A stretch of 29,128 nt of DNA, taken from the IMG/VR virus record IMGVR_UViG_3300000116_000136. One strand, written 5' to 3'. The stretch's first letter is position 1. Each line of letters opens with the position of its first letter. Positions 674 through 29,128 of this stretch are shown here, piece after piece. This stretch comes from a virus. Both the position numbers and the translations under genes were made by a program. A model generated the notes under the pieces. That model did no database searches. It saw only the letters and a list, made by a program, of their open reading frames with translations, and was not told the origin of the DNA.

Positions 674-1105
674 TTATAGTTTTGGTAATTTGTTTACAAA
701 TTTTATAAAAGTATCTGCATCTTTTTGTAAATCGTCAGAAATTTTAATAGTGTTGTTATATAAAGAATAATCTAACAAATCGTTTGAATTTATATCTACA
801 CCTAATTCTTTAGCTAATTTACGTGCTTTATCTACTTTAGTTTCTACATCGCTTTCTGCTGCACGTAATTCTTTTGCATATTTTGACATATTTGCAATAT
901 CGCCTTTTAGTTCGTTTGTAGCTTTTTCTATTTCTCTTACTGGCACGTATGCGTTGTTTATAAAGTTATCAGCTTCTTTACGTAGCTTTACAAATTTGTC
1001 TAACGCTTTTTTTGCATCGTCAATTACTGCAAACTCTACCTTTTGTGATTTTAGCGTAATTCTATCTAATTCGCTTTTGACCTTATTTTCAAAATTTAAA
1101 TCCAT
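674..1105 (-). CDS. Coiled-coil protein, paralog family member P1 (143 aa)
   Basis: ATG joined to the upstream stop by a TAATG overlap. Has N-terminal KSQKVEFAVIDD and distal AKELGV motifs shared with ORFs 3797..4180, 24945..25295 and 25298..25648. Heptad-like, K/E-rich. Confidence 0.75.
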   Translation of the reverse strand: MDLNFENKVKSELDRITLKSQKVEFAVIDDAKKALDKFVKLRKEADNFINNAYVPVREIEKATNELKGDIANMSKYAKELRAAESDVETKVDKARKLAKELGVDINSNDLLDYSLYNNTIKISDDLQKDADTFIKFVNKLPKL

Positions 1106-2222: not shown

Positions 2223-3134
2223 TTAGTCTAGTCTTACAATATCGCCACCTTGTGCGTGTTGTACACCAGCAGTATATTTAGCTACTACTCTCACGTTGTC
2301 AGAGCCATCTAATTGAGCCATATCTAACATTTTGATTTCTGCGTGGTCAGACAATAAGTCAGTACCAAAGAATAAGTTAGATTTTTGAGCTACTGCCATT
2401 TTGTTGTCTAGCATACCTTGACATACTGCAATTTTAACACCCTCAAATTCTGGTGTGTATTGCCCCATATGGTTGAAAGGAAACGCAGATAATGCAGAAA
2501 TAGCAGATACGTATAGTCTGTAAGATTTTGGGCTAACGTAAATGTATAAATCTTCTTTAGTGTAGACTGCACTAGGTACAGAAGCTAAAGCGTTTTGGAA
2601 GTTAGCAATAATGTTATCAGCAGTAAATGCAGTACCAGCACCACCCTCGTTGTCAGCTTCTTCAATAGCAGCATCGTTTTCGAATAAACCGTTACCAGCG
2701 TGCATAAATCCAGTAAAAGCACCAGAACCAGCAAGTCCAGCCCAGATGTTACTCTCTACGTGGTCTGCAATAGTACCAGATAGGTAAGACATAACAAATG
2801 CAGTAAAGTCGCCAGAGAAATCTCTGTTGTGTGCACCAGCACGCATTTGTGAAGCTTGCCAGTCAGCAAGTAAATCTTTTTTACATAAGTCTACATTAAT
2901 CTGAAATTCTTTTGGGTCTAAAATTCTTTCAGTTAGTGTTAATGTACCAGCGTCAGTAAAGTCGCAAGATGCATCTGCTACCAAAGAAGCACCAGCTACT
3001 TTAGTAATATTTCTTTTAGTTTTTACGTTTTCTAATACTGTTAGGTATTCTAAAGACGTAGCTGATTTTAATGCTGCTGCAATATATTGCCCAGCGTGTT
3101 CTCCAGCGTAGTTTGATGTAATATCAAATCCCAT
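2223..3134 (-). CDS. Major capsid protein (303 aa)
   Basis: Canonical protease - scaffold - capsid gene order. Size and composition are typical of HK97-fold capsid proteins. Assigned from context plus resemblance from memory. Confidence 0.7.
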   Translation of the reverse strand: MGFDITSNYAGEHAGQYIAAALKSATSLEYLTVLENVKTKRNITKVAGASLVADASCDFTDAGTLTLTERILDPKEFQINVDLCKKDLLADWQASQMRAGAHNRDFSGDFTAFVMSYLSGTIADHVESNIWAGLAGSGAFTGFMHAGNGLFENDAAIEEADNEGGAGTAFTADNIIANFQNALASVPSAVYTKEDLYIYVSPKSYRLYVSAISALSAFPFNHMGQYTPEFEGVKIAVCQGMLDNKMAVAQKSNLFFGTDLLSDHAEIKMLDMAQLDGSDNVRVVAKYTAGVQHAQGGDIVRLD

Positions 3135-3140
3135 AGTTAT

Positions 3141-3785
3141 TTATTTATTAAGGTTATATAGAAATCTATCTTGTGCAGATAATTTTTTGTACTCTGCACT
3201 AGACAATTCTACGTTATTTGTTTTGTTGTGGCTATTAAATTTATTAACTCTTAATGGCTCGCCACTTGGCTCATCAGATAAATCTTCTACTTGCTTAGAT
3301 AAGTTTACGTTTTCGTCTTGCAAGTCGTTAATGTTTTCGTCTTTTGCAAGGTTTTCGTTACGTACTTCGTCTAGTTCAGCTTTAATTCTGCTAATATCGT
3401 TTCTTACTTCTTCTAAAAGTTCTTTAACTACCGCACCTACTTCTTCTAATACAGTAGTTTCGTTTAGTTCTTCTTTAGAAGTTTCTACCTCTTCTACTTC
3501 TTCTTCTTCTGTTTCTTCTTCTTTAGCTTCGCCTACTTCTAAAACTACACCAGTTTCGTCTGTTGTAAATTCTGTACCATCTTCTAAAGCGTAAGTACCA
3601 GCTGGCATAGGTGTTTGCATACCATCTTCTGAAAGGATGTTTAATACAGTACCCTCTACTAGTTCGTCAGCTTCTGATACTATTATAGTGCCATCTGCTA
3701 ATTTATTTTCGTAAGCTAGTGTTACAGTTTCTTGTGCTTCGGTATCTAAACCTAGTGCTACTTTAATGCGTTCTTTAATATCCAT
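3141..3785 (-). CDS. Scaffolding protein candidate (214 aa)
   Basis: Very acidic central tract (EEETEEEEVEEVE) followed by a coiled-coil region. Immediately upstream of the capsid gene. Confidence 0.6.
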   Translation of the reverse strand: MDIKERIKVALGLDTEAQETVTLAYENKLADGTIIVSEADELVEGTVLNILSEDGMQTPMPAGTYALEDGTEFTTDETGVVLEVGEAKEEETEEEEVEEVETSKEELNETTVLEEVGAVVKELLEEVRNDISRIKAELDEVRNENLAKDENINDLQDENVNLSKQVEDLSDEPSGEPLRVNKFNSHNKTNNVELSSAEYKKLSAQDRFLYNLNK

Positions 3786-3796
3786 AGTTATTTTAT

Positions 3797-4180
3797 TTAT
3801 TTAGGCTCTTTATATAATTTAGGTAAATCTAAAACTAAACCATGTAACTTTCTTGACATATTATTAGCTTCTTTTAATCCTTTTATACTGTCAAAATCTC
3901 CACCTATATCTAATACAATTTGATTAATTTCGGCAACATCATTTTCTAGTTTCTTTCTAGTTTGCTCAATATCTTTTATAGCAGATTGAAAATCATTCCA
4001 TTCATTTTTATATTTAACAAATGCCTTATCTATTTTATCTTCTTGCTTTCTTAGTTTACCGTCTAATTTTTCTAAATCACTTAAAACTTTTGGTGCTTTT
4101 CTGGCTAGTTCTACTTTTTCTAACTCTACTTTTTCAGTAGTCTTAAACTTTGATAGTTCTGTATAAAAATTATTCTCCAT
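3797..4180 (-). CDS. Coiled-coil protein, paralog family member P2 (127 aa, most divergent)
   Basis: Has TEKVELEKVELA near the N-terminus, DIGGDF in place of the KELGV motif, and a C-terminal LPKL shared with P1. Confidence 0.7.
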   Translation of the reverse strand: MENNFYTELSKFKTTEKVELEKVELARKAPKVLSDLEKLDGKLRKQEDKIDKAFVKYKNEWNDFQSAIKDIEQTRKKLENDVAEINQIVLDIGGDFDSIKGLKEANNMSRKLHGLVLDLPKLYKEPK

Positions 4181-4210: not shown

Positions 4211-5077
4211 TTATTTTTTTAAAATTTTATTAGCTTCGTCCTCTTCTATAATCTCCATTAAAGACTTTACTATGTCGTGGTCGCTACAAGGCATATAAAA
4301 TATGTCGCCATCTATACTATGTTCGTGCGTACCCTCGCATCCTAAAGTTTTAGCGTATTCTAAGGCATCTTTTTCGTCTGTAAATAACGGTAAGCCATCT
4401 ACTTCGCCTACTGGCTCTGCGTATTTCTTTTTATCATCTTCGTCTACCTTTGCTAGTGTTTGCATTTTGTCGATAAAGTAGCCCTCTATACTTAATCCTT
4501 TTAGTTCGCCATCTTTAATTCTATTCCAAACATCGTCATTTAAAACTCTCATAGCTACGAACCACGTACCTTTTGGTAATTCATATCCATACAAGTTACT
4601 CTTATCGTTTTTGCTATCTTCTACTATCCAGCTTTCTACGGTGTGTACGCCAGTTACTTTTTCTTCGTGTTGTAACGTAGCGTTGTTAGTGTTTTGGTGC
4701 TTCATATAAGCCTCCGCAGCCTTACGTACAGTATCAGCAGTAAAGTACACGTAGTAATTACGGTCTTTGTTAGCATCGTATCGGTATATCTGTTTGTAAG
4801 GTATTAACGCTGGACTAATAAGTAGTCTTTGCTCTTCGTCTACTTTAGCTAGTGTTAAGTTATTCTCTTCTGCATTAAAGTAAACAAAGTCTGTCTCTAT
4901 TGCTGGACTTGTTACTAAACTAATTGCATCAATAGCTAAATCTTCGTTATCAGCATCTATAACTAATTCTACTATGTCGTAAGTCTGGTGTGCTTTTTCG
5001 CACTCTTCTAGCGTACTGTATTTACAGTCGCCACTACCATACTTAAATTTTCCGTCTTTACATTCTGTACAAGGCAT
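4211..5077 (-). CDS. XkdF-like prohead protease domain protein flanked by Cys/His-rich segments (288 aa)
   Basis: Core matches the XkdF (Peptidase_S78_2-like) pattern from memory: DAISLVTSPAIE..F, LISPALIP, YYVYFTADTV, ESWIVED, GTWF, GLSIEGYF. N-terminus has C-x2-C-x12-C-x8-C. C-terminus has GCEGTHEH-x9-MPCSDH. Confidence 0.6.
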   Translation of the reverse strand: MPCTECKDGKFKYGSGDCKYSTLEECEKAHQTYDIVELVIDADNEDLAIDAISLVTSPAIETDFVYFNAEENNLTLAKVDEEQRLLISPALIPYKQIYRYDANKDRNYYVYFTADTVRKAAEAYMKHQNTNNATLQHEEKVTGVHTVESWIVEDSKNDKSNLYGYELPKGTWFVAMRVLNDDVWNRIKDGELKGLSIEGYFIDKMQTLAKVDEDDKKKYAEPVGEVDGLPLFTDEKDALEYAKTLGCEGTHEHSIDGDIFYMPCSDHDIVKSLMEIIEEDEANKILKK

Positions 5078-22338: not shown

Positions 22339-22773
22339 TTACAAGTCCATTAAGATATTTATGGGTTGCGTGCCATTTTCTTTAACTACCATACACCCTA
22401 TCGCTGGCTTTTTTCCAGCCTTAGCGTAAGCCATAGCGTAGCTCTCGTGGTTTATGCCACAACCTACTTGACTACCATAGATACGGTAATTTTGCCCTAC
22501 GTAGTGTTCTGTGTAGCATTGTGTGTGTAAATGCCCTTGCACCGTATTCATCATATCGGCACGACATTTACTACGTGCAGTACCAGCTTCGCCATGAATA
22601 TACTGTACATCGTCTTTAACATAGCGTTCTACAAAATCCCATTGCGGTACTTCTAAGACATCTTTGTAACTTTTAATCCACTTACTAGGTATTGCAGAAG
22701 TTTGTGCCTTACGCATTATTAAACGGTCGTGGTTGCCTATTAAAACAGTAGCGACTGGGAACGCATTCGCCAT
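22339..22773 (-). CDS. Metallophosphoesterase, C-terminal segment (motifs III-V)
   Basis: LIGNHD (motif III), YIHGE, GHLH. The ATG sits immediately after an in-frame TAA. Confidence 0.75.
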   Translation of the reverse strand: MANAFPVATVLIGNHDRLIMRKAQTSAIPSKWIKSYKDVLEVPQWDFVERYVKDDVQYIHGEAGTARSKCRADMMNTVQGHLHTQCYTEHYVGQNYRIYGSQVGCGINHESYAMAYAKAGKKPAIGCMVVKENGTQPINILMDL

Positions 22774-23057
22774 TTAGATATTTTCTTTATAGCTAACTCT
22801 AATTCGTCAGCACCGCCCATACCATCCGCACTAGTTTCGTGGTAACTGCTATAATGGTTGTCTATAATATCGCCTATAAAAACTACCTCTGTACATTGGT
22901 GGGTGTCGTATTGCTCTTGGCAAAACTCTAAATAGCCATCTAAACAGAATGGCTCGTGTAAGTCGCCTATAACTAGTATGTTATTGGTTTTGTATTTTCG
23001 GTAGTTGTGTATTAATTGTTCTTCGTCTGGTTTTAATCTATAACGATTGTTTGCCAT
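22740..23057 (-). CDS. Metallophosphoesterase, N-terminal segment (motifs I-II)
   Basis: VIGDLHEP (motif I) and FIGDIIDNH (motif II). The last 10 residues (WRMRSQSLLF) are out of frame with the downstream ORF, which it overlaps by 34 nt. Confidence 0.75.
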   Translation of the reverse strand: MANNRYRLKPDEEQLIHNYRKYKTNNILVIGDLHEPFCLDGYLEFCQEQYDTHQCTEVVFIGDIIDNHYSSYHETSADGMGGADELELAIKKISKWRMRSQSLLF

Positions 23058-24371: not shown

Positions 24372-24932
24372 TTATACATCAAAACTACCGTCTAAAAAAT
24401 CTCGTATAGTTATTCTATTGTTTTGCTCGTAAGTATCTAAATTCATACCGCTAAAGTATGTGTCTTTTGTAGGGCTTAAATCTGCACCGCTATTAGTAGA
24501 ATACTCTGTAAACAAATCGTTATTGTTTCTTAGGTAATCTACCAAACGTGTAGCGTAGTATTCAGCAGTATTCTGTATAATGTTACGCATATACTTAATA
24601 TCTTCTAAACTTGCTGGTGTGCTAGTTTCTGATATTTTACGTACTATGTCTTTATTCATTATTTTGTACGACAAAAAGGGCATACACTCGAATAATGAGT
24701 AATGTATTAAAACTGGTTGTATATATGTATCTGTAAGCGTTTTGTAGTTGCCACTTAAAGAACCAGCAGTTATATCAGCTTGTATTTTATCGTACAAATC
24801 AGTACCTAGAAGCTGGTGTATATGTATGTCTTGTGCTACCTTAATGTATGGTAACAATAGTTCTACGTCTACATTACCGTTAATAGTAGTAGACTTCTTT
24901 ATAGTGTCCTCACTTACAAATAAAACTGCCAT
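24372..24932 (-). CDS. Possible head-tail connector/adaptor (gp6-like) protein (186 aa)
   Basis: N-terminal pattern LLLPYIKVAQDIHIHQLLGTDLYDKI resembles head-tail connector family N-termini. Located downstream of the portal gene. Confidence 0.4.
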   Translation of the reverse strand: MAVLFVSEDTIKKSTTINGNVDVELLLPYIKVAQDIHIHQLLGTDLYDKIQADITAGSLSGNYKTLTDTYIQPVLIHYSLFECMPFLSYKIMNKDIVRKISETSTPASLEDIKYMRNIIQNTAEYYATRLVDYLRNNNDLFTEYSTNSGADLSPTKDTYFSGMNLDTYEQNNRITIRDFLDGSFDV

Positions 24933-24944
24933 TTTATATATTTA

Positions 24945-25295
24945 TTATAATAATTTTAAAAATGCTTCCATACTATCTATATCTTTTTTTATAGATGGTC
25001 TATCAGATAATACTTCTTTAATATTTAAACCTAATTCTTTAGCTTGTTTTTCTATTTTTTCGTATGGTTTTACTAAAGACTTAAAATTATTTATATTTTT
25101 TTTAATATCATTTTCTAGTTGTGTTTTCAGTTTAAAAAATTTAGAAAATTCATCAGCTATATTTTCAGACTGTTTAACATAATTTTTATAACTACTTTTG
25201 AAATCGTCTACTAAACCTAATTCTACTTTATGCGTGTCTAGTTCTATACCGTTAAACAGTTTACCTAGTGCTATGTTTAAATCTTTATCGTTCAT
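24945..25295 (-). CDS. Coiled-coil protein, paralog family member P3 (116 aa)
   Basis: DTHKVELGLVDD and AKELGL motifs. In tandem with P4. Confidence 0.75.
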   Translation of the reverse strand: MNDKDLNIALGKLFNGIELDTHKVELGLVDDFKSSYKNYVKQSENIADEFSKFFKLKTQLENDIKKNINNFKSLVKPYEKIEKQAKELGLNIKEVLSDRPSIKKDIDSMEAFLKLL

Positions 25296-25297
25296 TG

Positions 25298-25648
25298 TTA
25301 TAAGCTTGAAATTATTTTATCAATATTTTGTTCAGCTTTTTCTGATAGCTTAACATTATTTTTAGCGTAATTTACTTTGTCTGCAAATAGTTTGTCCATA
25401 TTACCACCTACGCCTAATTCTTTTATTTTCTTTAATGCTTTTTCGGCATCTTTTAATGCTAACTTATATTCTTTAGCTGCACTTTTAGCTTCTTTTTGAG
25501 ACCTTATTAAACCATCTTGTATATTACCATACATTCTGTCTGCTTTATCTAAAGCACTATTAACATCGTCTATTAAGGCTAGTTCTACTTTTTCAGACTT
25601 TAGGTTTAGTCTGTTTTGTTCTTCGCTTAAATTCTTATAATAATCCAT
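25298..25648 (-). CDS. Coiled-coil protein, paralog family member P4 (116 aa)
   Basis: KSEKVELALIDD and IKELGV motifs. Immediately downstream of the portal gene. Confidence 0.75.
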   Translation of the reverse strand: MDYYKNLSEEQNRLNLKSEKVELALIDDVNSALDKADRMYGNIQDGLIRSQKEAKSAAKEYKLALKDAEKALKKIKELGVGGNMDKLFADKVNYAKNNVKLSEKAEQNIDKIISSL

Positions 25649-25652
25649 ATCT

Positions 25653-27497
25653 TTAATATCCTTTTTTATTTACAAATCCATTTTTAGGCATACGCTTCGG
25701 TGCTACTGGTACTTTTTGGTCGTTTACTTCTGGCTTAAAACCTTGACTACGTGCCTTAGTAGTAGTTATAGTTTTGTCTGCACTACTCGGTCTTGCACCA
25801 GCTTGTATATAAATACGTCTAAACCATTTATGATGACAATTACCACCGCCTTTAAAATGCCATATACTATAAGTATCAGCACCATTTAAGCCCCAGCCTT
25901 TATTTACTGGCATAGTACCCATACGTAAAATATCTTCTTTACGGTACACTTTTTTGGCTGCGGTCATTTTACTACAAAATTCTCTTTGTTCGCCACTACT
26001 ACGTGTTAAGCCTTTATCTTCTGTGTACACGTAACGCACTCTATATTTAGTTTTATGCGTTTGTGTGCTTTCGCCATCTTGCTTACTCTTAGCGTTTGGT
26101 ATTGCCCTACCAGTAGTAGCTAGTTCTAATTTTTCTAAATTGTATTCAAAGTCAAAATCTTCGTGTTCGCCCTCCGCATCCTCTTCGTCTATTAATTGCC
26201 AGTCGTCAAGGTTTTCATCTTCGCCAAACTCTGCAAGAAAACTATCTAATTCTGTTAGCTTGCTAAAGTTTTGCTCTTCGGCTACTGTTTCTTCTTGTTT
26301 TTCTAAAGGCTCAAATCCTAATTGCTCACGTATTTCGTCTTGCGTTAACACTTCTTTTAACGTATCAGCATCAAATATAGAATTTAGCGGCTGCACGTCT
26401 TTTATGCTAAACGAACAAGTTATACCATTTATGTTTAAAAGCTTCTTAAAAGTCTTTAAAATGGTATTCTGGAACGGTTTTACGACCGTATTCATATATA
26501 GCTCGTATGCTTGTGTAAGTTCGTTACGCCCACCTAATTGCCCTTCTGTCTTAACTCCTAATAACATAGGGCTTGTAACTCGGTGTCCTATCATTATATT
26601 CTGTATCGTCAGTTCGTTTAAAACTGTGTACTGTTTGTCAGCATCAGATACTTGTATAGGTAAAATTTCTGGCTTGCTCTGTGCATCGTCTGAAAATGTA
26701 AGTACAAATTTACCAGCGTTATTAGCACCAGTAAACTTTTTAGTAATTTGATTTTCTATCTGTACCCTCTCTTCACGACTGGGTACGCCATTCGCAAAGT
26801 TAATAAAGTAGCTACCAGAAAAACCGTTAGCTATATTGTTTAAATGATAGTCAGCAGTTAAATTATCTATCTGCACCCAGTTAGTAGAAGCTACGTAGTC
26901 TGGCGTGTGGTACAATTCCATAGCTGGACTGTATAGACCACTATAAAGTAATTGGCTACCCTCGCTTCTATCCATCATATTAAACGCAGTTATACGTTTT
27001 GGTGCGTATTCTTTTTTACGATATTGCGACCAGTCAGCAGAAACGTAATACGCTTCTACCTTGCCATCTTCGTTAGGTACACCTACACGTATCTGTTCTA
27101 CTGGTATGTGGTAAACCTCTGCTATCTTAGTCTTATCTTTAGACCATATTATATTTAAAGCGTAACCGCCTTGTAGTTTTAAATCAAAAGCTAGTTTAAC
27201 AAAAATTTCGTGTGCAGTTTCTTCGCTATTAACCGCACCTAGAAACTTCTTTAAAGCTACATACTGCGTTAAATCTTTACTATCTTCTACTATAAATTCT
27301 TCGCCAGCTATCATAGCAGACGTAGCATTAATAACAGAAGCGTGTGTAGCACTATTGTTATATAAATCTATAAGGTATTTAGGGTAGTTGTTTCTGTATT
27401 CGCCATCTCCGTAACCTATCCACTCTGCACCGCCTACCTCTATTGTTTTCGGTTGTACTTCGTTAGTTAAATTTATATTTATTAATCTATCTTTCAT
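25653..27497 (-). CDS. Portal protein fused to a C-terminal MuF-like (head morphogenesis) domain
   Basis: N-terminal ~400 aa show a portal pattern: YGDGEYRNNYPKYLIDLYNNSATHASVINATSAMIAGEEF, NGFSGSYFINF, FTGANNAGKF, IMIGHRVTSPMLLG. After an acidic linker, REFCSKM...VYRKEDI...PVNKGWG...YSIWHFKGGGNCHHKW resembles the Mu F / SPP1 gp7 C-terminal motif. The track start at 27527 is GTG; the ATG at 27497, 10 nt after the LamG stop, is preferred. Confidence 0.75.
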   Translation of the reverse strand: MKDRLININLTNEVQPKTIEVGGAEWIGYGDGEYRNNYPKYLIDLYNNSATHASVINATSAMIAGEEFIVEDSKDLTQYVALKKFLGAVNSEETAHEIFVKLAFDLKLQGGYALNIIWSKDKTKIAEVYHIPVEQIRVGVPNEDGKVEAYYVSADWSQYRKKEYAPKRITAFNMMDRSEGSQLLYSGLYSPAMELYHTPDYVASTNWVQIDNLTADYHLNNIANGFSGSYFINFANGVPSREERVQIENQITKKFTGANNAGKFVLTFSDDAQSKPEILPIQVSDADKQYTVLNELTIQNIMIGHRVTSPMLLGVKTEGQLGGRNELTQAYELYMNTVVKPFQNTILKTFKKLLNINGITCSFSIKDVQPLNSIFDADTLKEVLTQDEIREQLGFEPLEKQEETVAEEQNFSKLTELDSFLAEFGEDENLDDWQLIDEEDAEGEHEDFDFEYNLEKLELATTGRAIPNAKSKQDGESTQTHKTKYRVRYVYTEDKGLTRSSGEQREFCSKMTAAKKVYRKEDILRMGTMPVNKGWGLNGADTYSIWHFKGGGNCHHKWFRRIYIQAGARPSSADKTITTTKARSQGFKPEVNDQKVPVAPKRMPKNGFVNKKGY

Positions 27498-27507
27498 TTT
27501 TTTATTT

Positions 27508-28212
27508 TTAGACTGCTTGTACCGCACTTTCGCACCTAGTTAAATCAGTACCTACTAACTCACTTTTAAAAATGGCTACACTTAAAATGTCTCCACTATA
27601 CTGTGTGCTAGCTATTGCACCGCTACCTATTTGTGTTACGTCAAATACATCACTAATAGCAGACGTTACACTACCACTTTCTACACCGTTTAACCTTACC
27701 TTAAATACGTTGCTTGTAGTTCTTATGCAAGTTAATAAAAATGGTTGCGTAGGAAAAGATACATCTTCGCTATCTTGTTGCATCGGGTTAATTTCAGACT
27801 GTACGCCATTTGCTTTAATAGCTATACGCTCATTGTCAGCAGCTCTGTACATTTTTATTACGTCATTACCGCCTTTACCTAGTGGTGCATCGTTAGATAG
27901 CGTACCAGCTTCGTCTGGGTCTAAGTGCATAATGATAGTAAAGGCATCTAAATTTAACTGTGTTTCTAAACCTAAAAATTGCCTTACACCATCGAAAGTT
28001 ACTCTACCATTTGTTGTACTCGTTGGCTGGTTTGCACTCGTAGGTTGTATCGCATCGTTACCGTTAGCAGACTGGTCAGCCCACGAAGTTACCGAATCGC
28101 CAGACTTTGTTACGCCTACGCCAGACCTTAGCCATACTTCTAAACCCTCAAAATCTAAAGGGCTAAACGCTTTTAGTCTATTGTTAAGTTTTAAAGAGTT
28201 GCCTAACTGCAT
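27508..28212 (-). CDS. LamG / concanavalin-A-like jelly-roll domain protein (234 aa), probable virion or host-recognition component
   Basis: LEVWLRS......GDSVTSWADQSANGNDAIQPTSANQP.....NGRVTFDGVRQFL is the typical Laminin_G_3-type N-terminal signature. Confidence 0.65.
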   Translation of the reverse strand: MQLGNSLKLNNRLKAFSPLDFEGLEVWLRSGVGVTKSGDSVTSWADQSANGNDAIQPTSANQPTSTTNGRVTFDGVRQFLGLETQLNLDAFTIIMHLDPDEAGTLSNDAPLGKGGNDVIKMYRAADNERIAIKANGVQSEINPMQQDSEDVSFPTQPFLLTCIRTTSNVFKVRLNGVESGSVTSAISDVFDVTQIGSGAIASTQYSGDILSVAIFKSELVGTDLTRCESAVQAV

Positions 28213-28213
28213 A

Positions 28214-28480
28214 CTAGTTGTTATAACCTATTGCTAAACCGCTAGTTAAATCTATTGCAGTAAATGGTGCGAATATAACCGTACCAGCTGGTATAGTTTT
28301 TCCATCTAAATTACTGTCGTTAGTTGCACCAGTTATAGTACAATTTGTTATAACGCTATCGTTTACAAAATGTACCGCATAGAAGTCTTTAGAAGTCTGT
28401 GCAGCAGTTGTAAATACCTCTACCGTTCCTTTTTTACCTAACTGCTCGTTAAGTAAGTCTACTGTGTTTTTTACTGCCAT
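28214..28480 (-). CDS. Duplicate copy of 403..669 (88 aa)
   Basis: Identical protein in the ORF track. Confidence 0.7.
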   Translation of the reverse strand: MAVKNTVDLLNEQLGKKGTVEVFTTAAQTSKDFYAVHFVNDSVITNCTITGATNDSNLDGKTIPAGTVIFAPFTAIDLTSGLAIGYNN

Positions 28481-28484
28481 TTTA

Positions 28485-28916
28485 TTATAGTTTTGGTAAT
28501 TTGTTTACAAATTTTATAAAAGTATCTGCATCTTTTTGTAAATCGTCAGAAATTTTAATAGTGTTGTTATATAAAGAATAATCTAACAAATCGTTTGAAT
28601 TTATATCTACACCTAATTCTTTAGCTAATTTACGTGCTTTATCTACTTTAGTTTCTACATCGCTTTCTGCTGCACGTAATTCTTTTGCATATTTTGACAT
28701 ATTTGCAATATCGCCTTTTAGTTCGTTTGTAGCTTTTTCTATTTCTCTTACTGGCACGTATGCGTTGTTTATAAAGTTATCAGCTTCTTTACGTAGCTTT
28801 ACAAATTTGTCTAACGCTTTTTTTGCATCGTCAATTACTGCAAACTCTACCTTTTGTGATTTTAGCGTAATTCTATCTAATTCGCTTTTGACCTTATTTT
28901 CAAAATTTAAATCCAT
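28485..28916 (-). CDS. Duplicate copy of 674..1105 (coiled-coil paralog P1)
   Basis: Identical protein in the ORF track. Confidence 0.75.
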   Translation of the reverse strand: MDLNFENKVKSELDRITLKSQKVEFAVIDDAKKALDKFVKLRKEADNFINNAYVPVREIEKATNELKGDIANMSKYAKELRAAESDVETKVDKARKLAKELGVDINSNDLLDYSLYNNTIKISDDLQKDADTFIKFVNKLPKL

Positions 28917-29128
28917 TATAGTTTAATGTATGATGTGTTATTATTCGTTGTGTTTGTGTTGTCAGTTGGCGTGTATTGTGTGTAACTTACTTCTGTTACG
29001 TTATTATCTTTAACAAACGCCTTGCCTTTCTCTACTATGCTACTTGTTGCTAATCCAGTATCGTTAGTTAAACTATTGCTAGTTACCTCATATATCGTAT
29101 AAGTCCAAAAACCACCCTCTGTTAAAGT
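28916..29128 (-). CDS. 3' part of the duplicate copy of 1105..1515, truncated by the window end
   Basis: Sequence identical to 1105..1317. Confidence 0.6.
   Translation of the reverse strand, partial: TLTEGGFWTYTIYEVTSNSLTNDTGLATSSIVEKGKAFVKDNNVTEVSYTQYTPTDNTNTTNNNTSYIKL

Follow-up and report, generated by a model that had tools for sequence, protein, structure and literature searches.

A stretch of 29,128 nucleotides (nt) of the virus record IMGVR_UViG_3300000116_000136, referred to below as the window, carries four small genes, A, B, C and D, which are dispersed among the late head genes and encode paralogs of one protein family. Each protein consists of a short conserved leader ending in a KVE(L/F) motif and of a variable helical body, and the stretch from KVEL to the stop codon is a cassette exchanged between gene positions and between phages by recombination. 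In some relatives, a family cassette forms the C-terminal domain of the prohead protease. A to D are tentatively proposed to be dispensable, optional procapsid-interior proteins with a conserved targeting/junction leader and variable bodies, a reading that is given somewhat less than an even chance. Related contigs and loci are labelled L and their proteins P.

All four genes lie on the minus strand and occupy three intergenic positions termed slots. Slot S3, between the portal gene and the DUF6712 gene, contains two of them. Its first gene, A (25298..25648, 116 residues; family hidden Markov model (HMM) E 2.5e-28), comes right after the portal gene and has its leader at codons 1-23 (25580-25648), the motif SEKVELALIDD at 25565-25597, the body at 25301-25579 and a turn, KELGV, at 25409-25423. 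The second, B (24945..25295, 116 residues), comes right before the DUF6712 gene, with the leader at codons 1-26 (25218-25295), the motif THKVELGLVDD at 25203-25235, the body at 24948-25217 and the turn KELGL at 25026-25040. C (3797..4180, 127 residues) occupies S1, between the protease gene and a scaffold-like gene, and displays a leader of codons 1-20 (4121-4180), a second EKVEL at 4106-4120, an 'ARKAP' body at 3800-4105 and the turn DIGGD at 3896-3910. D (674..1105, 143 residues) fills S2, between g136 and g88, with the leader at codons 1-25 (1031-1105), the motif SQKVEFAVIDD at 1016-1048, the body at 677-1030 and the turn KELGV at 797-811. A second copy of D at 28485..28916, also on the minus strand, is identical, as the sequence-only reading had noticed, and is the product of an exact 1317-bp terminal overlap rather than an extra gene. 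The N-terminal motif reads KSEKVELALIDD in A, THKVELGLVDD in B, KSQKVEFAVIDD in D and TEKVELEKVELA in C, and LPKL is found in C and D. These features, the distal motif that is degenerate in C alone, and the positions of the genes (A and B after the portal gene, C between protease and scaffold genes, D after a terminator-like hairpin) were seen as that reading had described them. In 59 diverse members, variation is almost absent at L16, K20, V21 and E22 and at L78 and G79 (in the numbering of A), which correspond to the two motifs picked out by the sequence-only reading.

A, B, C and D are true paralogs of one family. Their open reading frames were confirmed on the minus strand, and the single architecture claimed for them is borne out by shuffle, HMM and profile-profile tests. 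In full-length Smith-Waterman comparisons against 1000 composition-preserving shuffles, z reaches 11.4 for A-D, 7.7 for A-B and 6.9 for A-C, the weaker pairs being B-D (5.2), C-D (3.7) and B-C (2.2). Bodies stripped of leader and motif keep scores of 6.9 (A-D), 4.6 (A-B) and 3.8 (A-C), and five further K/E-rich helical segments taken from this genome as controls do not exceed 2.3. A family HMM, for which slot genes from the window as well as from related contigs were used, so that it includes the window's own members, picks exactly A to D among the 48 window proteins (E 5e-33 to 1e-22), the next best protein standing at 0.057. Using hhalign, C-type bodies could be matched to all other bodies without leaders with 97.6% probability (E 2.8e-12, 93 columns); the DIGGDF of C, the most divergent member, falls in register on the LG turn of the family. 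A position matrix of the N-terminal motif found no other instance above the shuffle null in the window proteome. Two look-alikes, IVELVIDAD at the N-terminus of the protease and IKVALGLD at that of the scaffold-like protein, were rejected as neither rises above this null; the former is moreover part of the protease fold, since the sister-clade protease starts right at that strand.

The slots were surveyed in 80 contigs whose portal is 47-99% identical to that of the window and in which the conserved head genes were mapped. S1 is empty in 10 of 19 cases and occupied in nine, S2 is empty in 29 of 39 and occupied in 10, and S3 is empty in 47 of 78, the others holding one gene (14), two (16) or three (one). 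In empty slots, the flanking genes stand 1-5 bp apart. No member lies in any of the three slots of L043, L034/35, L066 and L076, which is not what is expected of a scaffolding protein, required and present throughout a lineage. At the other extreme, L005, with a portal 99% identical to that of the window, has five members, so that copy number ranges from 0 to 5. Given the empty slots of close relatives and this fluid copy number, the family is dispensable, and the slots are insertion sites bounded by conserved head genes. The sequence-only reading had spoken of four retained paralogs in the virion modules: gene context supports the location, whereas the retention does not hold, since many close relatives have nothing at one or other of the three positions, which are insertion slots for optional shuffled cassettes. 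The genes are tightly packed at 2-12 nt from the late head genes, and the intergenic gaps considered for A/B, C and D span 2-30 nt. No terminator-like site was found at A/B, C or D, and the genes do not present themselves as morons with a promoter and a terminator of their own; the promoter scan is not valid for promoters of the Bacteroidota type.

The leader, of about 20-26 residues, ends in (S/T)(E/H/Q)KVE(L/F), and each slot has its own: MENKFYNELSKFKKAEKVEL in S1, MDLNFENKAKSELDRITLKAQKVEL in S2, MNYFKNLSEEQNRLNLKSEKVEL for the first gene of S3 and MNNKELNIALGKLFNGIELDTHKVEL for the last. Database matches form a mosaic: a small set of leaders precedes a wide range of bodies with no obvious resemblance, and one body can follow several different leaders. 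Thus, 171 unique members fall into 56 body clusters at 40% identity, 16 of which are joined to at least two leader types, and their leaders form 15 clusters, three large and most tiny (single linkage, 60% identity). The body type of D is found in S2 of the window, S1 of L023 and S3 of L041; a 'STYSD' body is shared by S2 of L019 and S3 of L008; the body of A stands behind a B-type leader in L001 (P0003); and the body type of C recurs in S1 of the distant relatives L085-L089. In P0076, a metagenomic family member of 197 residues, a single leader is followed by two successive bodies, both with an LG turn of their own, which shows that cassettes can fuse to one another.

The breakpoints of these exchanges are sharp. 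When the same body occurs in different slots, the DNA of the copies becomes homologous 11-16 nt ahead of the end of the KVEL codons and ceases to be so 0-20 nt past the stop codon. The window and L005 are 97-98% identical over a head region of about 12 kb except for blocks running from KVEL to the stop codon, namely 4120-3802 in C and from 25580, the end of the KVEL codons, in A. EKVEL stands twice in tandem in C, whose junction also has the 18-mer GAAAAAGTAGAACTAGCC in common with that of A; the tandem is best regarded as a recombination scar, left by duplication of the junction. No conserved element, whether of sequence or of structure, was recognised at the stop codon that marks the 3' breakpoint. 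This combination of a slot-specific leader with a cassette that is exchanged horizontally, from KVEL to the stop codon, is the key feature that the sequence-only reading overlooked.

Third codon positions of the leader are conserved at 0.81-0.83 vs 0.52-0.68 in the flanking essential genes, and its amino acid identity is 0.88-0.94 vs 0.54-0.81. The leader is also conserved as a protein, being related across slots and across clades whose DNA differs. Its conservation fits a recombination substrate, a function at the protein level, or both. Within body types, the median ratio of nonsynonymous to synonymous substitution rates (dN/dS) is 0.17 (n=29). With such a low ratio, the bodies are functional proteins under purifying selection, and their diversity reflects the shuffling of many old types.

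The link with the prohead protease comes from relatives. In the XkdF-type proteases of L085-L087 (298-303 residues), the family module is the C-terminal domain (HMM E 1e-13 to 1e-14, residues 197-299): the protease tail, ...ADLLLSEIEKIVKGEKVELALVDD..., leads into a body, AKDLGI and a final helix. A scan for XkdF-type proteases yielded 80 further sister-clade loci, about 20 of which, among L090-L134, carry a fused cassette. Four types of C-terminus are met in this clade. In the first, the extra domain is absent and the protease, of 199 residues, ends in the tail helix; in the second, it is a family cassette, of at least 15 body types and always from KVEL; in the third, an unrelated 'YP..NNAKR..LWGG' domain (phrog_2859); and in the fourth, a small Cys-rich domain. 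Several junctions of the YP domain read (R/E)VE(L/F)ES, the same junction thus serving a domain foreign to the family. Residues 23-116 of B are 51% identical, ungapped, to residues 201-294 of the L093 protease, from KVEL to the end (E 2e-27). A free-standing member follows the cassette-bearing protease in 19 of 20 loci vs 11 of 58 for other proteases. Across the lineage, the protease C-terminus is a hot spot of domain swapping.

The window's own protease (288 residues) has no C-terminal module and ends 30 nt before C. At its 3' end (4211-4226), it has lost a 297-nt YP domain (LESYTDYPQ...NNAKR...GCGGLMWDAWGG; phrog_2859) that is kept in L005 (2136-2432); this domain of about 100 residues is present in most relatives as well as in L005. 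A C-type body compensating for the missing protease domain was considered and set aside, as no consistent correlation was found. Residues 1-26 of the window protease (5000-5077) form a four-Cys knuckle (MPCTECKDGKFKYGSGDCKYSTLEEC), which is also found at the N-terminus of the 160-residue member P0053 and is missing from sister-clade proteases; it appears to be another mobile N-terminal module.

The family is very large and lies outside every known family tested, so that the sequence-only reading, which could match the motif to no known family, is upheld in Pfam, PHROGs, PDB, Foldseek (PDB and BFVD) and cultured phages. In Pfam, the best matches of A to D all stay below gathering thresholds. 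In PHROGs, the best match, 1.6e-4 and for C only, is to an unknown family, the others being sub-threshold coiled-coil noise. A PDB profile search by sequence returned designed helical bundles only, and Foldseek searches of PDB and BFVD with the models of A and D gave E of 0.02-1.3 at best, to generic hairpins such as ROP, colicin R-domains, AcrA and tape-measure segments. No homolog was found by tblastn in 50,697 phage records, and the Nonlabens phage P12024S has no family member. A profile search of 5.8 billion proteins gave 301 matches, nearly all of 106-165 residues and from marine metagenomes or viromes, many of them on contigs of 27-31 kb. An exhaustive HMMER search of 1.84 billion cluster representatives retrieved 2071 clusters, defined at 50% identity, at E<=1e-3 and 359 at E<=1e-10. 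Among the best 150 clusters listed, nearly all are of 100-165 residues, and the 140 sequences newly found there display the KVEL-type motif in 135 cases and the LG turn in 132. The family is present in ocean viromes, one member bearing the name of a <0.22 um Tara scaffold and another that of a Pacific Ocean Virome (POV) contig, and none of the members looked up has a meaningful annotation. The C-type relatives P0012, P0016 and P0017 have a precomputed match to Pfam PF28175.1; the C-type body may already be catalogued as a recent DUF entry.

In the predicted fold, a long helix is followed by an x-L-G-x turn, after which a second helix folds back. The AlphaFold2 model of A (predicted local distance difference test, pLDDT, 90.6) has a helix at 7-78, a turn at LGVGG and a helix at 83-115, and that of D (pLDDT 85.9) a helix at 3-101, a loop and a helix at 113-138. 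The N-terminal motif had been described as strand-like; the models place it instead inside a continuous helix in A and D, with moderate confidence (pLDDT of about 75-88 there). Within the modelled chains, nothing pairs with the N-terminal half of the long helix, which makes it probable that the proteins oligomerise or bind another protein.

Two lines of evidence, gene context and the protease fusion, suggest a location inside the capsid. Because the prohead protease acts inside the procapsid and cassettes interchange between fused and free positions, the free proteins probably enter the procapsid core. The leader with KVEL, or in fusions the protease tail helix with KVEL, would bring the body into this core together with protease and scaffold. 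As KVEL stands exactly at the leader/body and protease/body junctions, it may also be a cut site of the protease. The bodies would then act as accessory core or internal proteins. Their diversity and their dispensability suggest a role specific to the host or to the infection after delivery, as for T4 internal proteins, rather than an essential role in building the particle.

Several observations weigh against this proposal. The association of 19/20 vs 11/58 is a raw one, uncorrected for shared ancestry. The fused cassette could be cut off before assembly, or the fusion could represent the first cassette of a tandem array whose stop codon was lost. A cut at KVEL gains no support from the motif matrix, with which no further site came up in the proteome. 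The looser pattern VE[LF][AGSTN] does occur seven times vs 1.7 expected, but four of the seven are the family itself; in the window's clade alone, the scaffold tail has a conserved KVEL(S/T), which the sister clade lacks; and the literature on XkdF-type protease specificity held nothing usable. The bodies are near neutral (median isoelectric point 8.7, net charge about +2), unlike the strongly basic, DNA-embedded internal proteins of T4. Finally, a helical hairpin common to all members, with its LG turn unchanged throughout, would be no less natural for a structural or coiled-coil protein than for a set of diverse effectors.

The proposal of optional procapsid-interior proteins may be carried further, to a combinatorial arsenal delivered by the capsid, although this extension is rated unlikely. 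One hairpin chassis would have diversified into hundreds of types, 0-5 of which would be loaded per head, by way of the conserved leader or of a fusion to the prohead protease, swapped at KVEL between co-infecting phages, and would act in the next host at DNA entry against targets such as defence systems; the whole would amount to an integron-like cassette system inside a structural operon.

The main rival explanation, which is rather unlikely but keeps a real share of the probability, is that A to D are auxiliary scaffolds or assembly chaperones. They would co-assemble through coiled coils with the scaffold and the module-bearing protease, on the model of lambda C/Nu3, P2 gpO or herpesvirus UL26/UL26.5, and would contribute to the formation or sizing of the procapsid before being broken down or expelled; a weak constraint on the sequence of coiled coils would explain how diverse they are. 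Such a role would account for the fusion of the module to the protease C-terminus, nearly always accompanied by a free-standing member, for a predicted long helix whose unpaired half needs a partner, for the uniform hairpin architecture, for the proximity of S1 to the scaffold gene and for the retention of the C-type body in S1 across distant relatives. Against this, a separate conserved scaffold gene is found in every relative examined, the 214-residue scaffold homolog being always present even where all slots are empty, and many relatives without any family member still assemble heads. At least 56 body types, each under purifying selection and swapped among phages whose portals are >75% identical, represent more turnover than the drift of one assembly factor would give, and Foldseek found no match to phi29 gp7 or another scaffold. 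The idea of scaffold accessories or assembly proteins put forward in the sequence-only reading therefore survives in part: it gains from the module fused to the prohead protease in relatives and loses from dispensability and from the lack of a phi29 gp7 fold match.

Less probable still, and judged distinctly unlikely, is that the genes encode late non-virion accessory proteins, active in anti-defence, superinfection exclusion or host takeover, whose leader and KVEL are mainly a coding recombination linker. Dispensable, patchy and hyper-diverse genes at fixed intergenic points would be expected in this case, as would a leader whose DNA is conserved at synonymous positions like a recombination substrate; the breakpoints are precise, and PeSL, of which the linker would be a functional analogue, give a precedent for linker-mediated shuffling (PMC2839356). 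This reading does not account, however, for the same body types being joined in frame to the prohead protease, nor for the confinement of all slots to the head operon, and the leader is conserved also as a protein, across slots and clades with different DNA.

External decoration proteins or fibres, also envisaged initially, are very unlikely. Dimeric or trimeric coiled-coil hairpins anchored to the capsid or neck by their N-terminal segment, with variable bodies exposed, as in the dispensable head fibres of phi29 or in T4 fibritin, would indeed be dispensable and variable, with the hairpin shape and the conserved N-terminal 'anchor' that are seen here, and two slots adjoin portal and neck genes. 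Nevertheless, a domain of the internal prohead protease is not expected outside the particle, Foldseek gave no fold match to known decoration or fibre proteins, and 100-165 residues are very short for fibres. As for chance or compositional similarity among K/E-rich helices, which the sequence-only reading had named beforehand as its refutation, z of only 2-4 for B-C and C-D and a PDB profile search ending in designed helical bundles are all that speaks for it, and it is ruled out for practical purposes by the strong shuffle z of A-D, A-B and A-C with controls <= 2.3, the HMM gap of 1e-22 vs 0.057, the hhalign register over 93 columns and hundreds of homologs with both motifs at the same positions.

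Among known systems, the T4 internal proteins come closest to the family in behaviour, and protease-linked scaffold modules in gene architecture. T-even internal proteins combine a conserved capsid targeting sequence with diverse dispensable bodies, and their polymorphism arises by replacement of whole bodies (PMC3012670). The T4 proteins IPI, IPII, IPIII and Alt thus resemble A to D in their short conserved leader and diverse dispensable bodies, and in genes tied to the prohead core and protease. The resemblance is one of analogy and not of homology, as there is no sequence or fold kinship; for IPI/II/III, no significant PHROG or Pfam match and no tblastn match in the 50,697 phage records was obtained. 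The leader is of 20-26 residues and differs by slot here, whereas that of T4 has about 10; all bodies are one helical hairpin with an LG turn here, whereas T4 internal proteins have unrelated folds; and the protease is of the XkdF / S78_2 type, that of T4 being gp21. The T4 type is also defined by a leader that the prohead protease removes at a defined site, by packaging in the head and by ejection with the DNA; for A to D, the counterparts would be a possible cut at KVEL and the proposed loading into the procapsid.

Protease-scaffold fusions or nested genes are represented by lambda C/Nu3, P2 gpO, Mu I/Z and herpesvirus UL26/UL26.5. In these systems as here, the protease may end in a helical module that also exists on its own, encoded beside it. 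Here, however, fused and free modules are of different body types and are encoded by separate genes without nested translation; the module is hypervariable and can be missing altogether, as it is from the window protease, and there is a conserved scaffold gene besides. In T4-type phages, PeSL are short conserved linkers that target insertion, deletion and replacement of accessory open reading frames between core genes (PMC2839356). As in PeSL or integron-like cassettes, a conserved linker would here direct the shuffling of accessory reading frames to fixed sites; unlike PeSL, it lies inside the coding sequence (leader and KVEL codons) without promoter or stem-loop, and all cassettes are from one protein family. 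With phi29 gp7, the family shares a small size (about 100 residues), an all-helical, coiled-coil-prone nature and a gene in the head module, whereas gp7 is essential and single-copy and the present family is dispensable, multi-copy and hypervariable, with no Foldseek or sequence match.

If packaged, A to D would represent a second, independent example of the strategy of T4 internal proteins, in uncultured marine phages of about 28 kb with another protease type. The grammar of slot leader, KVEL junction and swappable body could serve to load foreign proteins into capsids. With its hundreds of clusters at 50% identity, the family makes up a share of the 'dark matter' reading frames of marine viruses, and its exact breakpoints offer a tractable case of accessory genes being shuffled within a structural operon that is otherwise conserved and stays intact.

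The assembly of the window overlaps circularly, positions 1-1317 being exactly repeated at 27812-29128, and the unique genome measures 27,811 bp. Besides D, the overlap doubles g88 and parts of g234 and g136. Every long open reading frame is on the minus strand, and G+C is about 34%. In the order of transcription, a TMP-like protein of 568 residues is listed first, before the prohead protease (4211..5077, 288 residues, Peptidase_S78_2 / XkdF type, Pfam E 6e-21, PHROG head maturation protease), which borders S1 upstream. The scaffold-like acidic protein (3141..3785, 214 residues) borders it downstream and comprises a beta-rich N-terminal part, an acidic linker and a helical C-terminal part. This protein matches the C-terminal half of phrog_24921, the N-terminal half of which matches the protease, and gp01 of the Nonlabens phage (349 residues) is a protease-scaffold fusion of this kind. 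In L090-L134, a conserved Cys-rich reading frame of 49-51 residues (...RRACLCKDKNTYSRKCCDGSLWAQGIGVISRTI) stands just upstream of the scaffold gene, e.g. at about 3761-3910 in L090; the window has no counterpart of it.

The probable major capsid protein gene (2223-3134) follows and is directly succeeded by a strong terminator-like hairpin of 12 pairs and a T-run (2205-2179, minus strand), upstream of D, which fits an attenuation of transcription past the most abundant structural gene. Between the hairpin and D are g183 and then g136 (1105-1515), and between D and the portal gene, g88 (403-669) and then g234. The portal protein (25653..27527, 624 residues, phrog_33693 E 6e-77) and the DUF6712 protein (24372..24932, 186 residues, Pfam PF20459 E 6e-26) are the upstream and downstream borders of S3, and the lysis genes come after the latter. 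No PDB relative of the DUF6712 protein, the connector candidate of the sequence-only reading, was found by sequence. Its first 50 residues or so are identical in L015, L027 and L043, whose portals are only 69-82% identical; this unusual conservation of the S3 flank may come from recombination sweeps close to where the cassettes insert.

Among cultured phages, the Nonlabens (Persicivirga) phage P12024S/L is the closest relative, with a portal identity of only 31%. Megablast of the first 25 kb of the window against the 50,697 phage records gave no match, nor did a search of GTDB genomes with the portal for a prophage or host; only the relationship to the Nonlabens phage points to a possible host in the Flavobacteriia. 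A metallophosphatase gene (22339-23057, minus strand) is split by a frameshift near 22767 into overlapping reading frames of 105 and 144 residues. It is intact in L001, where its product of 239 residues is 99-100% identical to both sides of the frameshift, and the split in the window is either a sequencing or assembly error or the mark of a recent pseudogene.

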